64,000 nt of DNA from Thermoplasmata archaeon. GTDB lineage: Archaea > Thermoplasmatota > Thermoplasmata > Lutacidiplasmatales > UBA184. Below, in pieces: positions 398-64,000 of this stretch. Below the pieces are notes generated by a model. The model was not told the origin of the DNA and did no database searches. It saw nothing but the letters and a program-made list of their open reading frames with translations. The first letter of the stretch is position 1; every line of letters begins with the position of its first letter. The stretch lies in NCBI GenBank assembly GCA_027314165.1, contig DAHVCH010000004.1, positions 2,770 to 66,769 of the forward strand, given 5' to 3'. Position numbers and translations under genes: made by a program.

Positions 398-637
398 CTA
401 CCAGCCGGACACCGACGACCCGCACTTGGGGCAGGGCGTGGGCCGCAGGTCCACTTCCAGCCAGTATCCGCAGCTGGGGCAGTCGCTCGAGAGGGGCCCT
501 AGAGGGGTGGAGCAGTCGAAACAGAGTCCGTGTCGCCGGTCGTCGGGAAGCACGACGAGTTCCTTCCCGCACTGCAGGCAGTGCTGGAATTTCTCCTCGC
601 CCGACAGGAACGTGCGAACGTCAGCTTCCACCAACAT
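398..637 (-). CDS. Small multi-CxxC zinc-ribbon protein
   Basis: Four CxxC pairs (CLQC, CFDC, CPSC, CPKC) in 79 aa; start reassigned to ATG 637. Confidence 0.65.
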   Translation of the reverse strand: MLVEADVRTFLSGEEKFQHCLQCGKELVVLPDDRRHGLCFDCSTPLGPLSSDCPSCGYWLEVDLRPTPCPKCGSSVSGW

Positions 638-871
638 CCGAGCTTCCGACCAGCTTCCGCGAAGATAAGCCTGCCGACCACCGGGCCGACTTGAGGCACC
701 GGACCCGGACTTTTTCGTACGAATTATCTCGCGCGGGCGGCGTGGCCCTCCGTCAGAGCGATGCGCCGGGTCCGCAACTCTTCGAGAGAGCGCGTCGCGG
801 CGACGCACGCCCCGCGGAGCCGTTCCGAGTCGTGCCGCGGACACCGCGGTCGGCCGCGAAAGGCCAGTCGC

Positions 872-1627
872 TCAGTTCTCCCGCCACTGGGCCTTCTTCC
901 AGGCGATGAGGAAGAGCACCGTCGCCGACGCGAGGAGGATGACGACCGCCTCGATCCCGCTCTCGAGGGAGAGCGGCGCGAGCCCCATCGCGCCCTTGAC
1001 GAGGTTCGCCGCCCACGTCGTCGGCGCCAGCTGCGCGGCGTCCTGGAGCAGCGGCCATCGGGAGAGCGCCCCGATCGGGTAGTAGACCGGCGGGATGACC
1101 GTGAGCGCGATCGAGATGAGCGGAGAGACCGCGAACGTCTCCCGCACGTCGGCCAGGTACGTGGCGAGCGTGAAGCCCAGAGAGCTCGCGAAGATCCAGA
1201 GGAGGACCAGCGTGCCGAAGACGATGAGCCCTCCCAGGAAGACGTAGTGGGCCCAGATGAGCGAGAGGACGACGAACACGATCATCCCCGGCAGCGAGTA
1301 GACGAACTCGCTCAGGGCGAGGCCCAGCACGTAGGTCCCGGCGGAGACCGGCGAGGCGACCGCCATCTCGTGGAATTTGAGGTCCTGCTTGTAGTGGGTC
1401 ATGTCGGTCTGGAGGGAGGTGCCGATCGAGAGGACGGTCAGCACCATCCCTCCCGCCACGGCGAACTGGACGTAGGTCGGATTCCCGCCGGAGACGACGA
1501 AGATGAGGAACAGGAAGGAGAACGGGCTCGTCAGCGTGTTCAGCAGGAACAGCGGCTGGCGCTTCAACGGGAGGAACCCGTTCATCGAGACCAGGGCCCA
1601 GATGGCCCGCAGGCGGCTATGCGGCAC
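872..1627 (-). CDS. ABC-2 type exporter permease
   Basis: About 6 TM helices, PPVYYP motif; overlaps the upstream ATPase. Confidence 0.85.
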   Translation of the reverse strand: MPHSRLRAIWALVSMNGFLPLKRQPLFLLNTLTSPFSFLFLIFVVSGGNPTYVQFAVAGGMVLTVLSIGTSLQTDMTHYKQDLKFHEMAVASPVSAGTYVLGLALSEFVYSLPGMIVFVVLSLIWAHYVFLGGLIVFGTLVLLWIFASSLGFTLATYLADVRETFAVSPLISIALTVIPPVYYPIGALSRWPLLQDAAQLAPTTWAANLVKGAMGLAPLSLESGIEAVVILLASATVLFLIAWKKAQWREN

Positions 1628-2558
1628 CGACGGCCTCCTCGTCGTCCTGGGAGATCTCCTTGCCGACGATCTGGACGAACAGGTCCTCGAGGCTCACCGG
1701 ACCCATGGAGATCCTCCGGCCCTTCTCGAGGGCCTGACGGGCGAGCTCGTTGGCCCGCGGCTCGTCGGTGAAGAGCAGCGTCTTGTTCCCGACCCGGGTC
1801 ACCTGCCCCATCTCCTCGAGGTCGGAGGGGGCGAAGCCGTCCTCCAGGGTGACGCGGTAGGGGTACTTGACCCGCGCCGCGATGTCGGCGGGACTCCCGT
1901 GGGCCAGCAGCCGCCCGCTCTCCAGGATGGCGAGCTGGTCCGACAGCGCCTCCGCCTCGTCCAGGTAGTGGGTCGTGAGGAGGATCGTCCGGTCCTCGTG
2001 CGCCGCCTTCCGTATCGCGCTCCAGACGCTGCGCCGGGCCAGCGGGTCGAGGCCGGTCGTGGGCTCGTCCAGGAACAGGAACTCCGCATCGGAGGCCATC
2101 ACCATCGCGACCATCACCCGGCGGCGGAGCCCTCCGCTCAGCCGGTTGACCTGGGTGTTCTTCCAGTGCGAGAGCTCGAGCTCCTCCAGCGTGCGGAGCG
2201 CGGTCCTTTCGGCCTCCGCCCTCGCCGAGCCCCGCATGCGGAGGTAGTAGGAGACCAGCTCCGTCGGGGTGAGCCAGTAGAAGGGCCGGGATTCCTGCGG
2301 GATGACCGCGATCCGGGCCCTCACGGGGTCCGGGTCCTGGACCACGTCGTGGCCGAAGACCTCGAGCGAGCCGGCGGTGGGCATGAGCGAGGTGGAAGAA
2401 ATGCGGACGAAGGTGGTCTTCCCGGCCCCGTTCCTCCCGAGGAGACCCAGGACGACCCCCTTGGGGACCCTGAGGTCGACATCGACCAGCGCGCGGTTGG
2501 ACCCCCCGCGCCAGCGGTACTCGCGCCCGAGCTTGCGCGAGACCAGGATGTCCGTCAT
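1617..2558 (-). CDS. ABC transporter ATP-binding protein
   Basis: GRNGAGKTT, LSGG, FLDEPTTGLD, TTHY. Confidence 0.93.
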   Translation of the reverse strand: MTDILVSRKLGREYRWRGGSNRALVDVDLRVPKGVVLGLLGRNGAGKTTFVRISSTSLMPTAGSLEVFGHDVVQDPDPVRARIAVIPQESRPFYWLTPTELVSYYLRMRGSARAEAERTALRTLEELELSHWKNTQVNRLSGGLRRRVMVAMVMASDAEFLFLDEPTTGLDPLARRSVWSAIRKAAHEDRTILLTTHYLDEAEALSDQLAILESGRLLAHGSPADIAARVKYPYRVTLEDGFAPSDLEEMGQVTRVGNKTLLFTDEPRANELARQALEKGRRISMGPVSLEDLFVQIVGKEISQDDEEAVGAA

Positions 2559-2621
2559 GCCGACAGGGGGACCCGGGGCGTCCCTTAAGACCAGGCCGTG
2601 CAGAGGAAGGCGGTCACGGCC

Positions 2622-3692
2622 TCAGCTCAGGATCTCGGCGAGCCGGTCCTCCGCCATCGCCCGCTTGAGCTCGAGGGCGATCCGGCGGCCGGTGGAGAGG
2701 CCCGGGGCCACCATGTCGGAGTAGGGGGAGCCGTTGATGTACACGTTCGTCCCGGCGACGATCCTCGTGGAGATCTCGAACACGTAGAACTCGAGCTTCT
2801 CCGTCATGATCCCCTCGACGCAGAAGGGCCCGACCATGCCGCCGAACAGGTCGATGGACCGCTCGACGATCTTCTCGCCGATCTCGAAGATCTCGGGCAG
2901 GAGGGACTCCCTCAGGACCACGGGCACGTTGCCGGTGACCACGAACGTGGGCCGGATCCCGGAGCGCAGGAGCTCCTCCTGGCTGCCGAGCTTGTACAGC
3001 TCGTCGATGTTCGCCTCGTCCCGGCGGTCCATCCCGAGCAGCTCGAGCGAGCCGTCGCCGCAGCGGTAGCCCTTGTCGTTGAGAGGGGAATAGAAGAAGT
3101 GGATGTAGTACCGGGTGCCGATGACGTACTCCTGGATGACGTGGGGCTCGACGATCCGGAAGTTGTCGAGCTCGTGGCGGTTCTTCGCGAGGATGAACCC
3201 TCGACCGCCCTTCGCCCCGTAGTACTTCACGATGACCGGCCCATCGACCTCGCTCGAGTCGGTGTACTTCCTCGGCATCCGGACGCCCGCGCCTTCGAGC
3301 CAGACCCGTTCCTTCTCCCGGTCCGACTCCCATTCCATCACGCGGCGGTTGCCGAAGACGGGCACCGGGAGCTTCGAGAAGCGCTCGGGGCCGACGTATT
3401 CCACGAACGACCCGGTGGGCACCAGCACGGCCGCCTCCCTCCGCAGCCGCTCGGCGTGCTCGCCGATCTCCGTCACCTTCGGGAGGGTCAGGAACAGGTC
3501 CGGCTTCGCGAGAGGGAAGGCGTCGTAGAACCGGGGAGCCTTTCCCCGGGCGATCCCCAGGGTCCGGAACCCCTCGAGGCGTGCACCGTGGAAGATCTGC
3601 AAGCTCGAGTGTGAACAGATGGTGGCGATGGTGGGGTCCTTCCCCTCGAGGGGCTCGAGGACGCGGTCGGAGGCGAGTCTAGGGGCTACCAT
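2622..3692 (-). CDS. purP: Formate-dependent FAICAR synthetase (ATP-grasp)
   Basis: IATICSHSSLQIFHGA, GAKGGRG, LRESLL, FEISTRIVAGTN. Confidence 0.9.
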   Translation of the reverse strand: MVAPRLASDRVLEPLEGKDPTIATICSHSSLQIFHGARLEGFRTLGIARGKAPRFYDAFPLAKPDLFLTLPKVTEIGEHAERLRREAAVLVPTGSFVEYVGPERFSKLPVPVFGNRRVMEWESDREKERVWLEGAGVRMPRKYTDSSEVDGPVIVKYYGAKGGRGFILAKNRHELDNFRIVEPHVIQEYVIGTRYYIHFFYSPLNDKGYRCGDGSLELLGMDRRDEANIDELYKLGSQEELLRSGIRPTFVVTGNVPVVLRESLLPEIFEIGEKIVERSIDLFGGMVGPFCVEGIMTEKLEFYVFEISTRIVAGTNVYINGSPYSDMVAPGLSTGRRIALELKRAMAEDRLAEILS

Positions 3693-3780
3693 TGCGGTGC
3701 CAATCGTCCGGTCTTAATTCGCTTTCGCAACCGCCCCCCCGCGATCTTGCCGCCGACCGCAGCTTCATCCCCGAGCGGGG

Positions 3781-4314
3781 GTGGCCCGGGGCGTGTCCGT
3801 CCTGGACCGGATCCCGTTCTTCGTTCCCTGGGGGGAGGCCGTCCTTCTGGTCGCCGTCTCCGGGGCGTTCTTCCTGGTCCTGGGGAGGCTGCTCCGCAGC
3901 GTGGCCAAGCGGGCGGGCGTCCGCGCCCGTGCACGAAGGGCCATCTGGGAGACGCTGAGCCTGCTCTGGCTCGTCACCTCCGCCTACCTGCTCCTCAACC
4001 TCACCGGGATCGCCTCCCAGCTCACCATCCTCACGGCGGGGGGCATCGCCGGGCTCGTCATCTCGATGGGACTGCAGACGACCCTCGCGAACACCTTCGC
4101 CGGCATCTTCCTGCTGCGGGACCAGGCCATCCGGGTCGGGGACCGCATCGAGTACGCGGGGACCAAGGGACGCGTCCTCCGGATCGCCCTCCGGAACACC
4201 TGGATCGAGACGGACGACGGGGCGGTAGCCGTTATCGGGAACTCTGCGCTCTCCGCGGGGCCCCTGGTCAACCGCAGCGCGAGGAGCCGGCTCTCCCACC
4301 TCTTCGAGCCGTAG
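3781..4314 (+). CDS. Short MscS-family mechanosensitive channel
   Basis: 3 TM segments, GLQTTLANTFAGI, IRVGDRIE, GRVLRIALRNT. Confidence 0.82.
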   Translation: MARGVSVLDRIPFFVPWGEAVLLVAVSGAFFLVLGRLLRSVAKRAGVRARARRAIWETLSLLWLVTSAYLLLNLTGIASQLTILTAGGIAGLVISMGLQTTLANTFAGIFLLRDQAIRVGDRIEYAGTKGRVLRIALRNTWIETDDGAVAVIGNSALSAGPLVNRSARSRLSHLFEP

Positions 4315-4390
4315 GGGCTCTCCTCCGCGGTCGGCGGCCCATGTCCGACCCTCGGAAAGGAGCAAATACCGAGCCCCGGGTCGGACCTCC

Positions 4391-5314
4391 ATGCCCCGCA
4401 GCGCCATCCCAGGGACCCTGGGCGCCCTGGTCCTGCCGGGCGTCCTCGTCCTGTCGGCGCTGCTGGGGTTGGTCGCGGTCCCGGGGATGGCCCAGGGTCC
4501 GACGGCCGGGTCCGCCTCCGCGCCCATGCCGCAGGGCCGGGCCTCCTCCGGGCCCACCTACGTGATCCTCGTGCACGGCTACGACCCGAGCACGGTCCCG
4601 GCCTACTCGGTGTGGACCTACGGCGTGAACGTCTACCAGCAACTGGTGAACGCCGGCTACGTCGTGGGCGTGGTCTCGTACTACGGGACCTTCACCCTGA
4701 CCTTCAGCAACGGGACCACCTACACCGACCCCTCCTTCTACGGGACCACGTCCACCCCGATCGAATCCATCGCCCTCGAGCTCGGAAGGACGCTCGACCG
4801 GGCCTTCGCGCACCAGAGCGTCACCCTCGACATCATGGGCCACAGCATGGGGGGCCTGGTGACCGAGTACCTCCTCGAACACGTCCGGCTGCCTCGGGTG
4901 ACCCTTCAGAACGTGATCTTCCTGGGGACGCCCTTGGACGGCGCGCCGGTGACCTACCTCACCCCCTGGGTCAACCTCACCGGCTACGAAGCGTCCGAGA
5001 TGTCCCAGGGCTCCGGGTTCCTCACGACGCTCCACGCCTGGATGCCTAACGCGCGAGCGAACTACCCGGGCACCGAGTGGCTCGTCTACGTCGGGTACGC
5101 GAACCCGATCTGGGCAATGGCCTACTTCTCGGGACATGCGAACGACGGGCTGGTCGATGCTCCTTCGGCCGAGGCGGTGCCCCACGACCACAGCTACCTC
5201 TTCCCGGACCTCCACATCCCGACGCTCGACCCCTACACTCCGGGGAAGGTGAGCTACTTCGAGGACCCGAACTACGCGTCCGAGGTCCTGGCCAACTTCT
5301 CAGGCCACTACTAG
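4391..5314 (+). CDS. Secreted alpha/beta hydrolase (lipase/esterase-like)
   Basis: Signal peptide, ILVHG oxyanion motif, GHSMGG nucleophile elbow, GTP, NDGLV. Confidence 0.85.
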   Translation: MPRSAIPGTLGALVLPGVLVLSALLGLVAVPGMAQGPTAGSASAPMPQGRASSGPTYVILVHGYDPSTVPAYSVWTYGVNVYQQLVNAGYVVGVVSYYGTFTLTFSNGTTYTDPSFYGTTSTPIESIALELGRTLDRAFAHQSVTLDIMGHSMGGLVTEYLLEHVRLPRVTLQNVIFLGTPLDGAPVTYLTPWVNLTGYEASEMSQGSGFLTTLHAWMPNARANYPGTEWLVYVGYANPIWAMAYFSGHANDGLVDAPSAEAVPHDHSYLFPDLHIPTLDPYTPGKVSYFEDPNYASEVLANFSGHY

Positions 5315-5412
5315 GAACACGAGCGCTGCGGAGCTCCCCGCGCCCCAGGGCTGAGTGGAAGGGCCCACCAATCCGAGGGTTCACCGACCGGCACGGCCCC
5401 GGCCCGGGCGGC

Positions 5413-6627
5413 CTAGGGGGAGGCGGCGATCTCCGCGAGACGCTGCTCGAAGGTCTTGGAGTCGCTGAGCCAGTTCCCCAGGGTCGTCGCGGTGTGAGGA
5501 GCCACCTGCTGCTCCCCAGGGCCAACGACGAGGGGTACCAGCCGCACGTCCTCCCCCACGCCTGTCAGCGTCCAGGCCGTCTGGGAGGTGTGCGGGATGA
5601 CCGAGAAACCCCGCCCCAGGAGGCGCTGGGTCTCAGGGTCGATCTGCCTTGGGTCCCAGGAGATCCACGCGCTCCCGTTGTTCGTGACCGCGTCGTCTCG
5701 GACGGTGTGGAGGATGCGCTCCACCTCGTGGACCGGCAGGACCTGGAGCAGCGCATCCACCCCCTCAAAGGCCACAAGCGCTTGAGGATGGTTCTGGAAG
5801 CGGACCCGCAGCCCGCGCAGGGTCCCACCGATGAGATCGCTGCGCATGCCCTGGGGGGTGGCCCGCAGGAGCTGCGTGTCCCCCACGTGCCACCAACGGC
5901 GAACGAGTCCAGGGACCCCAGGAGTGAACGCGAGACGCGCCCCTTGCTGGAAGCCGCCCTGGAGGTTACGCCACAGCTCCCCCTCGACGGGAGCGGTGAA
6001 GAGCGCCGCTTCGGGAAGTCTGACAGGCCCGAAGAGCGCCTCACGGATCCAGTCGTCGCTCGTCCACCCCGCGTGGTCCCGGATCTGCTCGAGCTCCCGG
6101 TGGGCCACGCGATGGGCCTGGGCCACGAGACGGAGGACCTCCCGGGCGCGGTAGCGGACGAGACGGGCCGACCCCAGCTCCAGGGGGACCGTGGAATAGG
6201 AGCGCAGGGACGTATCGGCCGGTGTGATGAGGCCGTTGGAGCGGTCCGGGAGCGTCAAGAAGAGGTGGGTCTTCTCCCCCGCCCGCATGAGCGAGCTGGC
6301 GAGGGTGCAACGTGTGGGCTCGTCCATCACGGACATGGGAAGCTCGACGCTCCGGAGCTGCGGGCGCTCCCCGAAATGAACCACCTCGTAGAAGTGGAGG
6401 AGAAGGGTAGGGTCCGCGGCCGGCGGGGCGTGGTTGGCTGCGATCGCCGGTGTCGCGGACCTGGGGTGGGCGATGGGCACGGGCGGAATCCCCTCGGAGA
6501 GGAAGCTTCCGAACTTGCAGGGTTCACTGGCCGACCACGAACGAGGGCCCTCGACGAGCTCTCCGGTCGCGAGGTCCACCGTCCGGATCCCGGGGCGGGT
6601 CGAACGGCTCTGACCGATGCGCTCCAT
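5413..6627 (-). CDS. Hypothetical protein with DUF835-like (inactive KaiC/RecA-fold) domain
   Basis: Strong SD-like GGAGGTGGTGAGG upstream; VAFEGVDALL...ILHTVRDDA...WISWDP...LL resembles the DUF835 consensus. Confidence 0.6.
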   Translation of the reverse strand: MERIGQSRSTRPGIRTVDLATGELVEGPRSWSASEPCKFGSFLSEGIPPVPIAHPRSATPAIAANHAPPAADPTLLLHFYEVVHFGERPQLRSVELPMSVMDEPTRCTLASSLMRAGEKTHLFLTLPDRSNGLITPADTSLRSYSTVPLELGSARLVRYRAREVLRLVAQAHRVAHRELEQIRDHAGWTSDDWIREALFGPVRLPEAALFTAPVEGELWRNLQGGFQQGARLAFTPGVPGLVRRWWHVGDTQLLRATPQGMRSDLIGGTLRGLRVRFQNHPQALVAFEGVDALLQVLPVHEVERILHTVRDDAVTNNGSAWISWDPRQIDPETQRLLGRGFSVIPHTSQTAWTLTGVGEDVRLVPLVVGPGEQQVAPHTATTLGNWLSDSKTFEQRLAEIAASP

Positions 6628-6645
6628 GCGACCTCACCACCTCCA

Positions 6646-7116
6646 TCACCGGGAGACCAGGCAGGAGCGGACGATCCCGGTCAGGACCGACCTGCTCCGC
6701 CCGGACCAAGGGTCCAGCCGGGCGAAGGGAGGGAGATCGTAGACCTTGGCCACACGACTTCCCACGCCGCCCCGTGCGATGGACCCCTCCGGAGCGAGGA
6801 CCGGGAGAGGCCCAGGGCGTGGGAGGCGGGCCAGGAGCCTGTTGCGGCGGAAGTGCGCGAGGCCTCCGAAGTTCCACCGGATCGTCCCGACGGTCCCAAG
6901 ACCGATTTGACACGGGTGCGAGACCCCTGTCAGCCACATCCTGTCGCCGGACCCTGCTTTGGACATTGCAGGACCGAAGCCCAGGGAGAGCCCTTTCAGT
7001 GCCCGGGCCACGAGGGCCCTTACGACGAACGTCGCAAACGCATTCATGGTCGCCACCCCGAGCGCGTACATGCCGACGCCTTTCTCGAGAGGCGGGGTCG
7101 CTTCCTGCGCGGACAC
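6646..7116 (-). CDS. Hypothetical protein
   Basis: Co-oriented ORF ending 18 nt before the DUF835-like gene start; no recognised motif. Confidence 0.4.
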   Translation of the reverse strand: MSAQEATPPLEKGVGMYALGVATMNAFATFVVRALVARALKGLSLGFGPAMSKAGSGDRMWLTGVSHPCQIGLGTVGTIRWNFGGLAHFRRNRLLARLPRPGPLPVLAPEGSIARGGVGSRVAKVYDLPPFARLDPWSGRSRSVLTGIVRSCLVSR

Positions 7117-7243
7117 AGGGGAGGCTTTCGGCCCTCCCCTTCTTGAACAAGCGGTGTCAATCAGGAACCAACTGATGCCTGCAGGTTCCGTAGCGGGCCA
7201 GCAGGGGGACCCGGTCCACCGAGGGCACCGGGGGCACCGGGGG

Positions 7244-7876
7244 CTATGCGCGCGCCCCGCCCTCGTCGACGGGAGCGGTCCCGTCGAGGCTCGTGCGAGA
7301 AAGGCGGGGGGCCGACACGGCGCGCAAGCGGCGTCGAGCGCTCCCTAGAGGAGAGCGGGAGCGTTCCTGCAGCTCGCGGACCTCGAGCCGGATCGGGGAA
7401 GTGCTCCCCAGAGCTCGAAGCCCAATCAACGGAAGCTGAGGGTTCTCGAACCTGCCCGGCCCCAGGTTCACCCGAAGCACGACGGGGACGCCCCGGTCCA
7501 GGCTGTCGACGATAAGGTCCTGGGTCGAGTTGGGGAGCACACCAAGCCCGAGGGCGGCTAGACCCTGCATCGGGTCCTTGAGCAGGCTTCGAAGGGCCAC
7601 CCACTGCGCTCGGGAGTGTCGCAGAAGACCTTCGGCGTCTTCGGGGGGAATGAGGATCGGGCTCTCGCTCGGGAACTTTCGGAGTTCAGGTCCAACCGAC
7701 CTTCGGTCGGTGGAGGGGAGAGGGTCACGGCACGCGCAGACCCGGGCTTGCGCCTGGTCGAGGTCGACCCGCACCGTCAACGCAGCGGTCGAGCCGTGCC
7801 CAACCGTCGGGTTGCGGGGGCAGAGCTCAGTATCTCTCCAGGGGCAGGTGGCTCGTGGCGCGTTTGTCGCTCCCAT
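7244..7876 (-). CDS. Hypothetical protein with Cys/His-containing N-terminus
   Basis: Purine-rich SD-like GAGGATGGAGG before ATG; CPW-x5-C...H...CAC. Confidence 0.5.
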   Translation of the reverse strand: MGATNAPRATCPWRDTELCPRNPTVGHGSTAALTVRVDLDQAQARVCACRDPLPSTDRRSVGPELRKFPSESPILIPPEDAEGLLRHSRAQWVALRSLLKDPMQGLAALGLGVLPNSTQDLIVDSLDRGVPVVLRVNLGPGRFENPQLPLIGLRALGSTSPIRLEVRELQERSRSPLGSARRRLRAVSAPRLSRTSLDGTAPVDEGGARA

Positions 7877-61254: not shown

Positions 61255-62487
61255 GTGACGGGCAGTAGCCGGAAGGAGGAGCGGCGCCTGAAGGAGCTCC
61301 TCCAGGCTCACGAGCGTTGGCGGACGCGGGAGTGTCTGAACCTTCTCGCCTCGGAGAACCTCGCTTCGCCCACCGTCCAGAAGTACCTCTCCAGCGACCT
61401 TTCCCGTCGCTACACCCTCCCCCTGGACCAGACGCTCCACGGGGAGAAGGTCGACAACGGCTACGCCGGGACGAGGTTCGCCGACCAGGTGGAGGCCCTC
61501 GCGGCGGCTTCGACCGCCCGGCTCCTCCACGGGCGCTTCGCCTCCGTCCGTCCCCTCTCGGGGCACGTGGCGGCCATGTGCGTGCTCGCTCCCCTTCTTC
61601 CCCCGAAGGCCCGCTACATGGCGGTCCAGCCAGAGGACGGGGGGTACGACGGGTACGCGCCCGGCTACCTCCCCTCCGTCCTGGGGCACAGCGTCCTGCC
61701 CCTGCCGCTCCACGGCCCGCTCCATCAGCTGGACGTGGAGGAGGTGGCCCAGCTCATCCACCGCGACCGCCCTGACGCGGTCGTCCTGGGCCAGAGCTTC
61801 GTCCTCTTCCCCTACCCGCTCAAGGAGGTGGCCAAGGTCGCGCACGAGGTGGGCACCCTGGTCCTCTACGATGCCTCCCACGTGATGGGACTGGTCATGG
61901 GAGGGGAGTTCCAGGACCCCTTGGGCGATGGTGCGGACGTGGTCTTCGGGTCCACTCACAAGACCCTCTTCGGTCCCCAGGGCGGTCTCCTCGCCACCGC
62001 GCGCGAGGACCTCTTCCGCCAGATCGACAACGCCCTCACCTGGAGGCTCATCGACAATGCCCACTGGAACCGCATCGCGGGCCTCGCCCAGGCCCTGCTC
62101 GAGATGGAACGGGTCGGGGCCCCCTATGCTCGGCGGGTGGTCGAGAACTCCCAGGCCCTGGGGAAGGCGCTCGACGAGGAGGAGGTCCCCGTGGTGGGGA
62201 AGGAGGCGGGCTTCACGGCCTCCCACCAGGTCCACCTGGACGGCGCCGAGCTCAAGCGCCGCTACGGGGTCGCGCCTCCGGGGCTCGCCCGGCGGCTCGA
62301 GTCGCAGGACATGATCATCGACCTGGTGGGACGCCTCGGGACCGCCGAAGCCACTCGGCTGGGGCTGAGGCCGAAGGACATGCCTCGGGTCGCCCGGCTC
62401 CTCAAGCAGGCGGGGCTCGACCGGAAGGATGTCCGTAAGGAGATCTCCGCGTTCCGCCACAAGTTCCGAGGGATGGCCTTCACTTAG
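61255..62487 (+). CDS. glyA: Serine hydroxymethyltransferase-family PLP enzyme
   Basis: NLLASEN, YDASHV.GL, STHKTLFGPQGG, RLGT. Confidence 0.82.
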   Translation: MTGSSRKEERRLKELLQAHERWRTRECLNLLASENLASPTVQKYLSSDLSRRYTLPLDQTLHGEKVDNGYAGTRFADQVEALAAASTARLLHGRFASVRPLSGHVAAMCVLAPLLPPKARYMAVQPEDGGYDGYAPGYLPSVLGHSVLPLPLHGPLHQLDVEEVAQLIHRDRPDAVVLGQSFVLFPYPLKEVAKVAHEVGTLVLYDASHVMGLVMGGEFQDPLGDGADVVFGSTHKTLFGPQGGLLATAREDLFRQIDNALTWRLIDNAHWNRIAGLAQALLEMERVGAPYARRVVENSQALGKALDEEEVPVVGKEAGFTASHQVHLDGAELKRRYGVAPPGLARRLESQDMIIDLVGRLGTAEATRLGLRPKDMPRVARLLKQAGLDRKDVRKEISAFRHKFRGMAFT

Positions 62488-62609
62488 GTGGGCTGCCCGC
62501 CACCCGCGCGTCGCCCCCGCTGGCCCTGAGCTCATCGCCCTGGGGGACACACCGACACCCCACCCTACGAGGACCTCGGTCGGGAGCCCCTCCGCCGGGC
62601 CAAGAGGAG

Positions 62610-62685
62610 CCGTAGTAGAGAAGAGGAACAGAAGAAAAGAGGGAAGGAAGGGGTTCGGCCCCCTCGGTCCTGGACCGAGGGGGTC
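62610..62685 (-). terminator. Hairpin plus pyrimidine tract terminator
   Basis: CCCCCTCGGTCC/GGACCGAGGGGG inverted repeat (62659-62683) followed on the minus strand by a C/T tract. Confidence 0.7.
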
Positions 62686-62690
62686 GCGGG

Positions 62691-62792
62691 TCAGAGCCGG
62701 CTACGGCGCTCCGAGTATCCCTCGTGCGCCGTACGCTGGTGGCTCTCCAGACTAGGCCCGTCGCTGAAGCTGGCCTCGCACACCGGGCAGGT
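62691..62792 (-). other. In-frame post-stop extension encoding a C2H2 zinc finger (candidate readthrough)
   Basis: After the TGA at 62793-62795 the frame reads TCPVCEASFSDGPSLESHQRTAHEGYSERRSRL*. Confidence 0.75.
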
Positions 62793-64000
62793 TCACGAAC
62801 GGCCAGCGGACGAGTCCGAAGACCCGCCGCTGCTGCTGTCCATGGAACCGCCCATGTTGTTGTCCCCGCCGCCCATCTTGGGCTTGCGCGCGAGCATCAT
62901 GCCGGTGATGATGCCCACGACGGCCCCAACGATGATCCCGATCTCCAGCAGGATGGTCCCAAGGACGTTGGGCGCCATGCCGCCAGGGCTCGAGTACTGG
63001 GTGGTGGTGTTGTAGTACCAGTTCGTGGTGGTCGTGGTGTTGATCCAGACGGGCTCAGGCACCGTCACCGGCGTCACCGTCGGGATCGGCAGCACGGTGA
63101 AGGTGGCGTTGAAGGCCACCGTCGTCAGCGCGTGCCCGATGCTGGAGGCCGCTCCGTTGGTCGTCTGGATCTCGACCGCGTACTGCGTCGCGACGCTGGG
63201 GGCCGTGTAGAACGTCTCCCAACCGGATCCGATACCGGACGAGCTCCAGACCGAGGTGTTGAACACCTGGCTGCTGGTGGCCACGTCCCAGATCGTGAGG
63301 TAGGCCGCGGCGGAGGCCGGGTCGTTCCACGAGTAGTAGACGGACACGTTCCCGCCCGCGACCGAGGTGGTCGGTCCGACGGTCGCCACCTGGCTGATGA
63401 CATCCGCCACGCAGAAGCTCTGCATGGATGCGTCCATCCAGGTCGCGATCGGTCCGGAGGGCTCGCCCTGGCCGGGGATGGTGCTGTTGTAGACCCCGAT
63501 CTCGATGTTGTAGCAGCCCGCCGGGTAGGACAACGCCGCCAGGTAGTAGCTGGTCTGGGTCGAGGCAAAGTGCGCCGTCTTCGCCGACACGACGGTGCCG
63601 GCGCTGTTCGCGATGTCCAGATCGAGCGAGAGCTGGGCACCGAAGGTCCCCAGTCCGGTGGTCGTCCAGTTCGCCCAGACGTTGTACTGGGGTCCCTGGA
63701 AGGCCTGGCCGTACGCCGGGCTCGTAAAGCTCACGACCGCCGGGACGTAGTTGACGGTGATCGTCGTCGAGGTGAAGACGCCCACCTGCCCGTCGTTCGG
63801 GACAGCCACGTAGCCGGGGACGGACTGCGCGGTCCAGTGGTAGTAGCCAGTGAAGGCTCCCGCGATGTACAGGTCCGCCGTGATTCCCGTCGTACTCGCG
63901 GTCAGGCCGGTCGAGGGGTTCACCACGGAGACGCCCCAGGTGGTGCCCGTAGCGAGACCGGACTCCACGAACTGCAGCGTGTAGGTGAGCATGCCCACCT
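62793..64000 (-). CDS. Large cell-surface (S-layer-like) protein, C-terminal part; 5' end outside window
   Basis: YTLQFVESGLATGTTW repeat-type motif, many N-x-S/T sequons, Thr-rich linker, C-terminal TM, Gly/Ser-rich cytoplasmic tail. Confidence 0.8.
   Translation of the reverse strand, partial: VGMLTYTLQFVESGLATGTTWGVSVVNPSTGLTASTTGITADLYIAGAFTGYYHWTAQSVPGYVAVPNDGQVGVFTSTTITVNYVPAVVSFTSPAYGQAFQGPQYNVWANWTTTGLGTFGAQLSLDLDIANSAGTVVSAKTAHFASTQTSYYLAALSYPAGCYNIEIGVYNSTIPGQGEPSGPIATWMDASMQSFCVADVISQVATVGPTTSVAGGNVSVYYSWNDPASAAAYLTIWDVATSSQVFNTSVWSSSGIGSGWETFYTAPSVATQYAVEIQTTNGAASSIGHALTTVAFNATFTVLPIPTVTPVTVPEPVWINTTTTTNWYYNTTTQYSSPGGMAPNVLGTILLEIGIIVGAVVGIITGMMLARKPKMGGGDNNMGGSMDSSSGGSSDSSAGRS

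Follow-up and report, generated by a model that had tools for sequence, protein, structure and literature searches.

In the coat/A1 protein of phage Q-beta and in retroviral gag-pol, leaky readthrough of a UGA codon produces a minor, C-terminally extended isoform. We analyzed a stretch of 64,000 nucleotides of a Thermoplasmata archaeon (assembly GCA_027314165.1, contig DAHVCH010000004.1; G000:C44:2770-66769, called the window below), in which the gene of a thermopsin-like, membrane-anchored protease on the minus strand ends in a similar manner. As in Q-beta A1 and gag-pol, one in-frame UGA is located between a complete major product and a same-frame extension without its own start codon. For these viral systems readthrough was measured, and gag-pol uses a defined downstream RNA structure, whereas the present case is known from sequence alone and no such element was found. 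Moreover, the present host is archaeal, and its sister species simply carry a sense codon at this place.

For Archaea, a 2021 review names only selenocysteine (Sec) and pyrrolysine (Pyl) readthrough together with -1 frameshifting as demonstrated (PMC8211752), in agreement with the sequence-only reading of the window, which knew of no archaeal case of this kind. The locus shares with archaeal Sec/Pyl recoding the in-frame stop inside an ancestrally single coding sequence, but no Sec machinery was found here, the codon is TGA and not TAG, and the position is neither catalytic nor that of a ligand. With the classical C2H2 finger (PF00096) the extension has in common the exact ligand spacing, the Phe/Leu core and an ortholog modelled as two short strands plus helix; in contrast to the classical case, only one finger is present, placed at the far C-terminal end of an archaeal extracellular protease with a membrane anchor, and it scores just below the gathering threshold. 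The thermopsin family (peptidase A5, PF05317) matched the N-terminal part of the protein at residues 136-412 with E=1.1e-41 and 143.5 bits (curated cut-off of 25), and the ortholog of the G003 type is named a thermopsin family protease; compared to this family, the protein is much longer (1238 aa), has a C-terminal transmembrane (TM) anchor and ancestrally possessed a cytoplasmic finger. Brz of Halobacterium and HVO_0758 of Haloferax are reportedly small archaeal zinc-finger micro-proteins, the latter of the C(P)XCG type. The likeness is restricted to a single short zinc-binding unit in an archaeon, as those proteins are free-standing with their own start codons, while the present finger forms the tail of a large membrane protein.

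We favor, at a rough probability of 0.5, a fixed truncation of the protease, with the finger as a remnant in slow decay that arises solely through basal UGA leak. The gene encodes a membrane-anchored extracellular thermopsin-like acid protease, the ancestors of which carried a single, presumably cytoplasmic C2H2 finger at the very C-terminus, connected to the TM helix by a flexible linker. Within the lineage of the host genome (G000), the codon at position -2 from the first zinc-liganding Cys changed to TGA and the allele became fixed. The main product would then be a finger-less protease ending with SDSSAGRS, and the finger would now be part of the 3' untranslated portion of the same transcript, upstream of the old terminator. 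It would be made only via unprogrammed basal UGA leak, presumably too small to be selected, and would drift under relaxed constraint with its key residues so far unhit.

The host assembly consists of 96 contigs with 2.54 Mb, 69.5% G+C and a completeness of 85.7%; the sequencing runs containing the stretch were labelled as mine drainage, soil or sediment metagenomes. The open frame around the protease gene comprises 1240 codons and reaches from beyond the window end to the TGA at 62795..62793 (minus strand, as all parts of the gene below). Its ATG is found on G000:C44 at the window-equivalent position 66509, beyond the window end, and is followed by 1238 codons to this TGA. The N-terminus contains a hydrophobic segment (signal or anchor). 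The ectodomain is long and presumably glycosylated, with its in-window part traced as one frame on the contig at 62967..64000, and continues into a Thr/Asn-rich stalk; seven N-x-S/T sequons were counted within the last 401 residues of the protease. The C-terminal TM helix VLGTILLEIGIIVGAVVGIITGMML (62892..62966) is conserved in relatives, and the equivalent segment of the ortholog from sister species G003 was modelled as a helix (residues 3-30). It is followed by a Gly/Ser-rich tail of 32 residues (ARKPK...SDSSAGRS; 62796..62891), which is basic at the membrane side and corresponds to a disordered linker in the ortholog model. By the positive-inside rule, this tail probably sits on the cytoplasmic side.

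Re-reading of the minus strand bore out the sequence-only description of the 3' end in every detail: GGSSDSSAGRS is followed by TGA and by 33 further codons in frame, with an exact C-x2-C-x3-F-x5-L-x2-H-x4-H pattern. The first TGA occupies 62793..62795, the extension T-CPVCEASFSDGPSLESHQRTAH-EGYSERRSRL 62694..62792, with the C2H2 core CPVCEASFSDGPSLESHQRTAH at 62724-62789 and 10 more codons behind it, and the second TGA 62691..62693. As had been claimed, the interval from the first TGA to the first Cys contains no ATG, GTG or TTG. A single in-frame start exists in the extension, the GTG of Val in CPVC (62783..62781), which opens a 30-aa open reading frame (ORF) without the first Cys; since this sole GTG falls after the first Cys, the finger with all four ligands cannot be a separate ORF. 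A terminator-like element (62615..62683, minus strand), composed of a perfect 11-bp hairpin (62683..62659) and a pyrimidine/T-rich tract (62615-62658), was likewise located where expected: the hairpin starts eight bases past the second TGA, and none follows the first one. The single strain difference listed for it, at 62670, lies within the hairpin loop. An antisense open frame of more than 425 codons (window 62724-63998, plus strand), rich in Arg, Gly and Asp, overlaps the protease gene. By composition it looks like a shadow frame of a 70% G+C gene and not like a gene.

Based on ligand spacing, core residues and homology, the extension encodes a predicted C2H2 zinc finger. CPVCEASFSDGPSLESHQRTAH agrees with the general C-x2-4-C-x12-H-x3-5-H pattern with F and L of the core in place, and the six key finger columns were invariant in 11 of 11 aligned sequences. 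The Pfam profile zf-C2H2 (PF00096) yielded E=6.9e-5 and 23.5 bits, just below its gathering score of 25.2, a narrow margin which is usual for a lone 23-residue domain. The beta-beta-alpha fold was observed in the AlphaFold model of the G003 ortholog module, not of the G000 sequence itself, where a disordered linker joins the TM helix to a finger of the order strand-strand-helix (strands 54-55 and 62-63, helix 66-77; pLDDT of this block 78-86, mean pLDDT 70). Scanning all six frames of the 96 contigs (5.07 million residues), the strict C2H2 pattern was found once in the whole genome, namely in the finger in question. A relaxed pattern gave one further match, in an Arg/Pro/Ala-rich frame which we took to be non-coding from its composition. 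Openness of the extension and its G+C content at third codon positions (GC3) were discarded as evidence of coding, because both also occur past ordinary stops: at least 33 open codons follow the stop in 71% of 1397 high-GC3 ORFs, and a GC3 of at least 0.85, the value of the extension, was found downstream in 16% of them. The finger nevertheless is not a chance product, with homology as the decisive evidence, and the in-frame stop is followed by homologous sequence without its own start, as expected for a readthrough candidate.

Relatives were searched with the last 169 codons in 41 related genomes. In the related loci read, stalk, TM helix, linker, C2H2 finger and stop formed one unbroken frame. 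The ortholog on G003:C104 shares 41% identity over 1277 aa and has the finger fused. As in G000, the SHMT gene (83% and 76% identity) is the neighbor of this locus and of that of a second sister species, G002:C33, with the orientation retained, and both proteins were therefore considered positional orthologs. At the stop site, G000 reads TCG TGA ACC TGC, and G003:C104 and G002:C33 read GCC TTC CGG TGC and ATG TTC ACC TGC, respectively. Hence, syntenic orthologs have a sense codon within a continuous frame, and since in two sister species this codon is TTC with a fused finger, the TGA is the derived state. Fused forms were also found among protein records: P0153, called "thermopsin family protease, partial" at NCBI, is of the G003 type, and P0154 is of the G002 type. 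The sequence-only reading had placed the TGA at the aromatic position of the finger, and Phe is indeed found there in the orthologs of G002, G003, G014 and G009; over all relatives, the residue varies between F, H, N and L.

Using a profile of the complete TM-linker-finger module on 301 genomes of the class, 25 full-length matches were obtained, in G000 and in 18 of the 37 further genomes that make up its family here. A total of 24 of these 25 contain no stop, and the sole interrupted one is that of G000. Other families of the class gave only finger-only or TM-only matches. Among stop-marked matches in related genomes no second stop-interrupted module was found: rows with one TAG for G002 and G003 reflected the natural stop past the finger, and the matches on G022:C25, G040:C6 and G005:C8 contained no C2H2 finger. 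No full module was present in 19 of 37 other family genomes, and G005 and G015 have TM+tail forms without the finger, which makes the finger dispensable. When the module profile was run against 1.84 billion representatives, the 150 best hits listed were long multi-finger proteins with 10-81 matched stretches each, a result silent on the spread of the module. By comparison of these sequences, the finger is an end-piece of extracellular acid proteases that is ancestral, specific to the family and presumably cytoplasmic. In agreement with the sequence-only proposal, homology identified it as a genuine domain severed from a membrane-anchored envelope protein by one in-frame TGA.

The stop itself was assessed in reads, contigs and proteins. 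Runs X1, X2 and X3, which may be the source of this DNA, contain all 123 sampled words of 62300-63500. Logan contigs of four further runs (X4, X7, X9, X11) from 4 studies span 62793-62795, and no difference at the stop was among those listed, though neighboring single-run differences were; as at least 109 further differences exist beyond those listed, identity at 62793-62795 in these contigs is likely but not strictly demonstrated. Relative to the window, 62627-64000 contains 48 differences in X7 and 53 in X9. Just two close protein clusters were present in the database. P0001 (1237 aa, 12 members) shares 95.2% identity and P0002 (1238 aa) 80.5% over 1240 aligned positions, and both end with SDSSAGRS. 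No shorter protein fragments were found, and a scan of metagenome contigs with the 235-aa C-terminus detected no relative, although P0002 shares TTTNWYYN, one of the scanned peptides, and would have shown. Because these 95% and 80.5% identical proteins of other assemblies end at the same residue, the stop is neither an assembly error nor a fresh, private mutation. The sequence-only reading had held that sense codons in all orthologs would mark a recent nonsense mutation; the sense codon was there in two syntenic sister species, but the mutation is not recent. Its origin is placed later than the divergence from the G002/G003 lineages but earlier than that of G000 and P0002.

Some caution about this age comes from the 3' end of the gene. 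In X7, the intergenic stretch 62550-62627 is replaced by 79 other letters, and 62627-63060 shows only 3 listed differences compared to a level of around 5% within glyA. X7, X9 and X11 share a 3-base deletion at 62829 that preserves the frame. The pattern in 62488-63060 resembles that of a boundary of recombination or of a sweep confined to the 3' end of the gene. The near-invariant 62627-63060 serves as a warning that this end may recombine between lineages, and that the stop may be younger than the 80.5% identity suggests.

TGA is an ordinary stop in this genome, as the sequence-only reading had noted for the window, and is the commonest one (879 of 1401 high-GC3 ORFs). An A follows in 150 of these 879 cases, as it does here. 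No tRNA with the anticodon UCA was found in the 85.7%-complete genome. An ARAGORN call (intron option) of a tRNA-SeC with a 210-nt intron on contig C7 had no Rfam support, and the best tRNA-Sec model score in the genome, 40.3 bits at a cut-off of 47, belonged to an ordinary tRNA-Cys. SepSecS was not found and SelD gave no match over the cut-off, at the given completeness and with PSTK and SelB not searched. The genome thus did not reveal the set of tRNA-Sec, SepSecS or PSTK, and SelD that a selenoprotein would call for, in keeping with the earlier view of Sec as the less likely decoding. The anticodon stem of tRNA-Trp(CCA) has the normal 5 bp, and a search for a tRNA-Trp in which it has 4 bp gave no result. 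The tRNA-Trp(CCA) gene (G000:C22:12931-13112) harbors a 109-nt intron after the anticodon and gave no Rfam match at its locus, probably owing to the intron. Searching 62400-63000 with Rfam, nothing came near a gathering score: the two matches listed (E=0.52, and GP_knot1 with E=1.1) remained below 18 bits compared to required 67-77 and were both on the plus strand. The RNA fold around the TGA had a z-score of -2.56, with 2 of 200 shuffles as good, which is a mild excess for a single sequence without comparative support. No stimulatory context or structure was identified, and as archaeal readthrough signals are undefined, this absence carries no score. Overall, the common TGA-A, the lack of a UCA tRNA among those found, the normal tRNA-Trp stem and the absence of a near-threshold Rfam match give no sign of a recoding device and support truncation.

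The finger evolved faster in G000 than in its sisters. Within the 66-nt finger core, changes unique to G000 versus those unique to the sister numbered 16:6 and 14:3 with G014 as outgroup. Taking G009 instead, the values were 17:6 and 15:4, and for G004 they were 12:9 and 10:9. The corresponding counts for stalk plus TM helix were 12:25 and 26:33, without acceleration in G000, which points to a relaxed constraint specific to the finger. The G000-unique finger changes were spread evenly over the codon positions (5/5/4), and the natural stop was shifted to 10 codons past the last His compared to 2-4 in 10 of 10 relatives. All six invariant residues as well as Asp10, Thr20 and the basic residue at position 19 are still present in the G000 finger. 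Among the strain differences listed, X7 has one inside the finger (synonymous AGC>AGT at 62742) and X9 none; as 62627-63060 has only 3 listed differences, the strain data are without power on selection of the finger. Relaxed but not absent constraint is expected of a young remnant and of a rarely translated domain alike.

We weighed this fixed truncation against four other explanations. For an error of assembly or consensus, or a minor population variant, the true codon would be sense and the protein simply fused; a 96-contig, 85.7% complete assembly invites this suspicion. The full word content of X1-X3 (even if these are the source), the contigs of X4, X7, X9 and X11 from 4 studies with no listed difference at the site, and the independent gene calls P0001 with its 12 members and P0002 that stop at the same residue make it very improbable, and the stop is genuine. 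Even less credible is a UGA recoded as selenocysteine at this place or reassigned genome-wide. Its one positive sign, the ARAGORN call on C7, failed in Rfam, the best tRNA-Sec score was that of a tRNA-Cys, neither SepSecS nor a SelD over the cut-off turned up (at 85.7% completeness this leaves absence unproven), TGA terminates 879 of 1401 high-GC3 ORFs and the position is no metal ligand. A separate micro-protein, translated from the in-frame GTG (62783..62781) or by re-initiation past the stop, could appeal to the 30-codon GTG ORF and to finger-only frames of 66-67 residues in another family (G037, G049). The GTG product would retain three of four zinc ligands only, no start exists between TGA and first Cys, and in all relatives the finger ends a long protein, so that this origin of the finger is also very improbable. 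Even taken together, the error, the Sec or reassigned codon and the separate micro-ORF have only a small chance of being correct.

The serious competitor is selected leaky readthrough. Here a near-cognate tRNA (Trp, Cys or Arg) would decode the long-kept UGA at low frequency and a fixed small share of protease molecules would bear the finger, with selection keeping both the stop, which sets the ratio, and the finger. We regard this as only slightly less probable than the truncation. Several observations weigh against the truncation favored here and for such readthrough. The stop is old and widespread, as seen from the 12 sequences of P0001, the 80.5% identical P0002 and the contigs of 4 studies with no listed difference. 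Neutral simulation let the six key residues and the open frame survive with P of 0.23, 0.056 and 0.014 at 0.1, 0.2 and 0.3 substitutions per site. By rough inference, the neutral distance on the G000 branch since the P0002 split is about 0.1-0.3. This value was derived from 7 non-synonymous versus 10 synonymous changes listed for 62796-63564 (omega of about 0.26) and from 16 synonymous changes within 430 nt of glyA (dS of about 0.14). The six key codons were spared by all 11-16 nucleotide changes unique to G000 (random P = 0.006-0.03), which clustered in 6-7 permissive codons. Ser13 and the basic residue at position 19 were retained despite 2-3 nucleotide changes each, and G000, P0001 and P0002 agree in all 8 residues that precede the stop, with a variable middle of the tail. 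The terminator was retained downstream of the finger, which is therefore on the mRNA; any inserted amino acid should be tolerated, as relatives have F, H, N or L at the stop position; and the sole listed strain difference in the finger is the synonymous one at 62742. On the other side, a stop is lacking in the sister species and in 24 of 25 family modules, it is precisely the stop-bearing lineage in which the finger is accelerated, the natural stop of the finger is displaced, and no special context or structure was found. The strain-level data with their 3 listed differences in 62627-63060 are powerless, an exchange of the 3' end between lineages could make the stop look older than it is, and in Archaea near-cognate readthrough is not among the demonstrated cases according to the review cited above (PMC8211752). 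Of the sequence-only reading, the cut-off finger domain and the single TGA stand; programmed or selected readthrough is a hypothesis.

The combination of TM helix, flexible linker and single C2H2 finger apparently is an undescribed module; a limited literature search gave nothing relevant on archaeal surface proteins or thermopsins with a C2H2 tail in the cytoplasm. Proteins of about 1700 residues that gave a subtilase-type match and contain a pro-kumamolisin activation domain also end in the module, as does the product of the adjacent downstream gene, a 524-613-residue protein of unknown kind without Pfam match. Such tandem module-bearing pairs are located at L039 (G159:C1:489800-497700; 551-5692 and 5824-7662) and L040 (G017:C1:22200-29700; 535-5589 and 5740-7311), and also occur in G303, G173 and G112. 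In other genera (L004-L009, L013, L015), the linker contains a short conserved motif, (A/G)-(P/A)-(Q/K)-(A/P)-W, which the genus of G000, G002 and G003 lacks. In another family, the locus L021 (G040:C6:25500-28700; minus strand, about 1450-1653) encodes a TM helix and a Gly-rich tail with a different Cys-x2-Cys ... Cys-x2-Cys unit at its end, and zinc-type cytoplasmic end-pieces on membrane proteins may be wider than the C2H2 module. The frames of 66-67 residues from another family of the class (G037:C33:14474-14560 and G049:C11:27590-27676) match the finger part of the profile and could be free-standing C2H2 micro-proteins.

Independent of any readthrough, the module is carried by thermopsin-like and pro-kumamolisin/subtilase-like proteases and their unknown neighbors within one family of acidophile-associated Thermoplasmata, and raises the question of the role of a cytoplasmic finger for enzymes which work outside the cell. 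If the finger is only a remnant, the locus would represent an ordinary truncation caught before decay. If selected readthrough is true, Archaea would have their first selected case of stop-codon readthrough that involves neither Sec nor Pyl, acting on a previously undescribed class of membrane-anchored acid proteases ending in a cytoplasmic zinc finger. A finger still in use would make this a natural, evolutionarily young readthrough born from a plain fusion, with the fused state preserved in sister species, and the recruitment of a stop codon to set isoform ratios would become testable.

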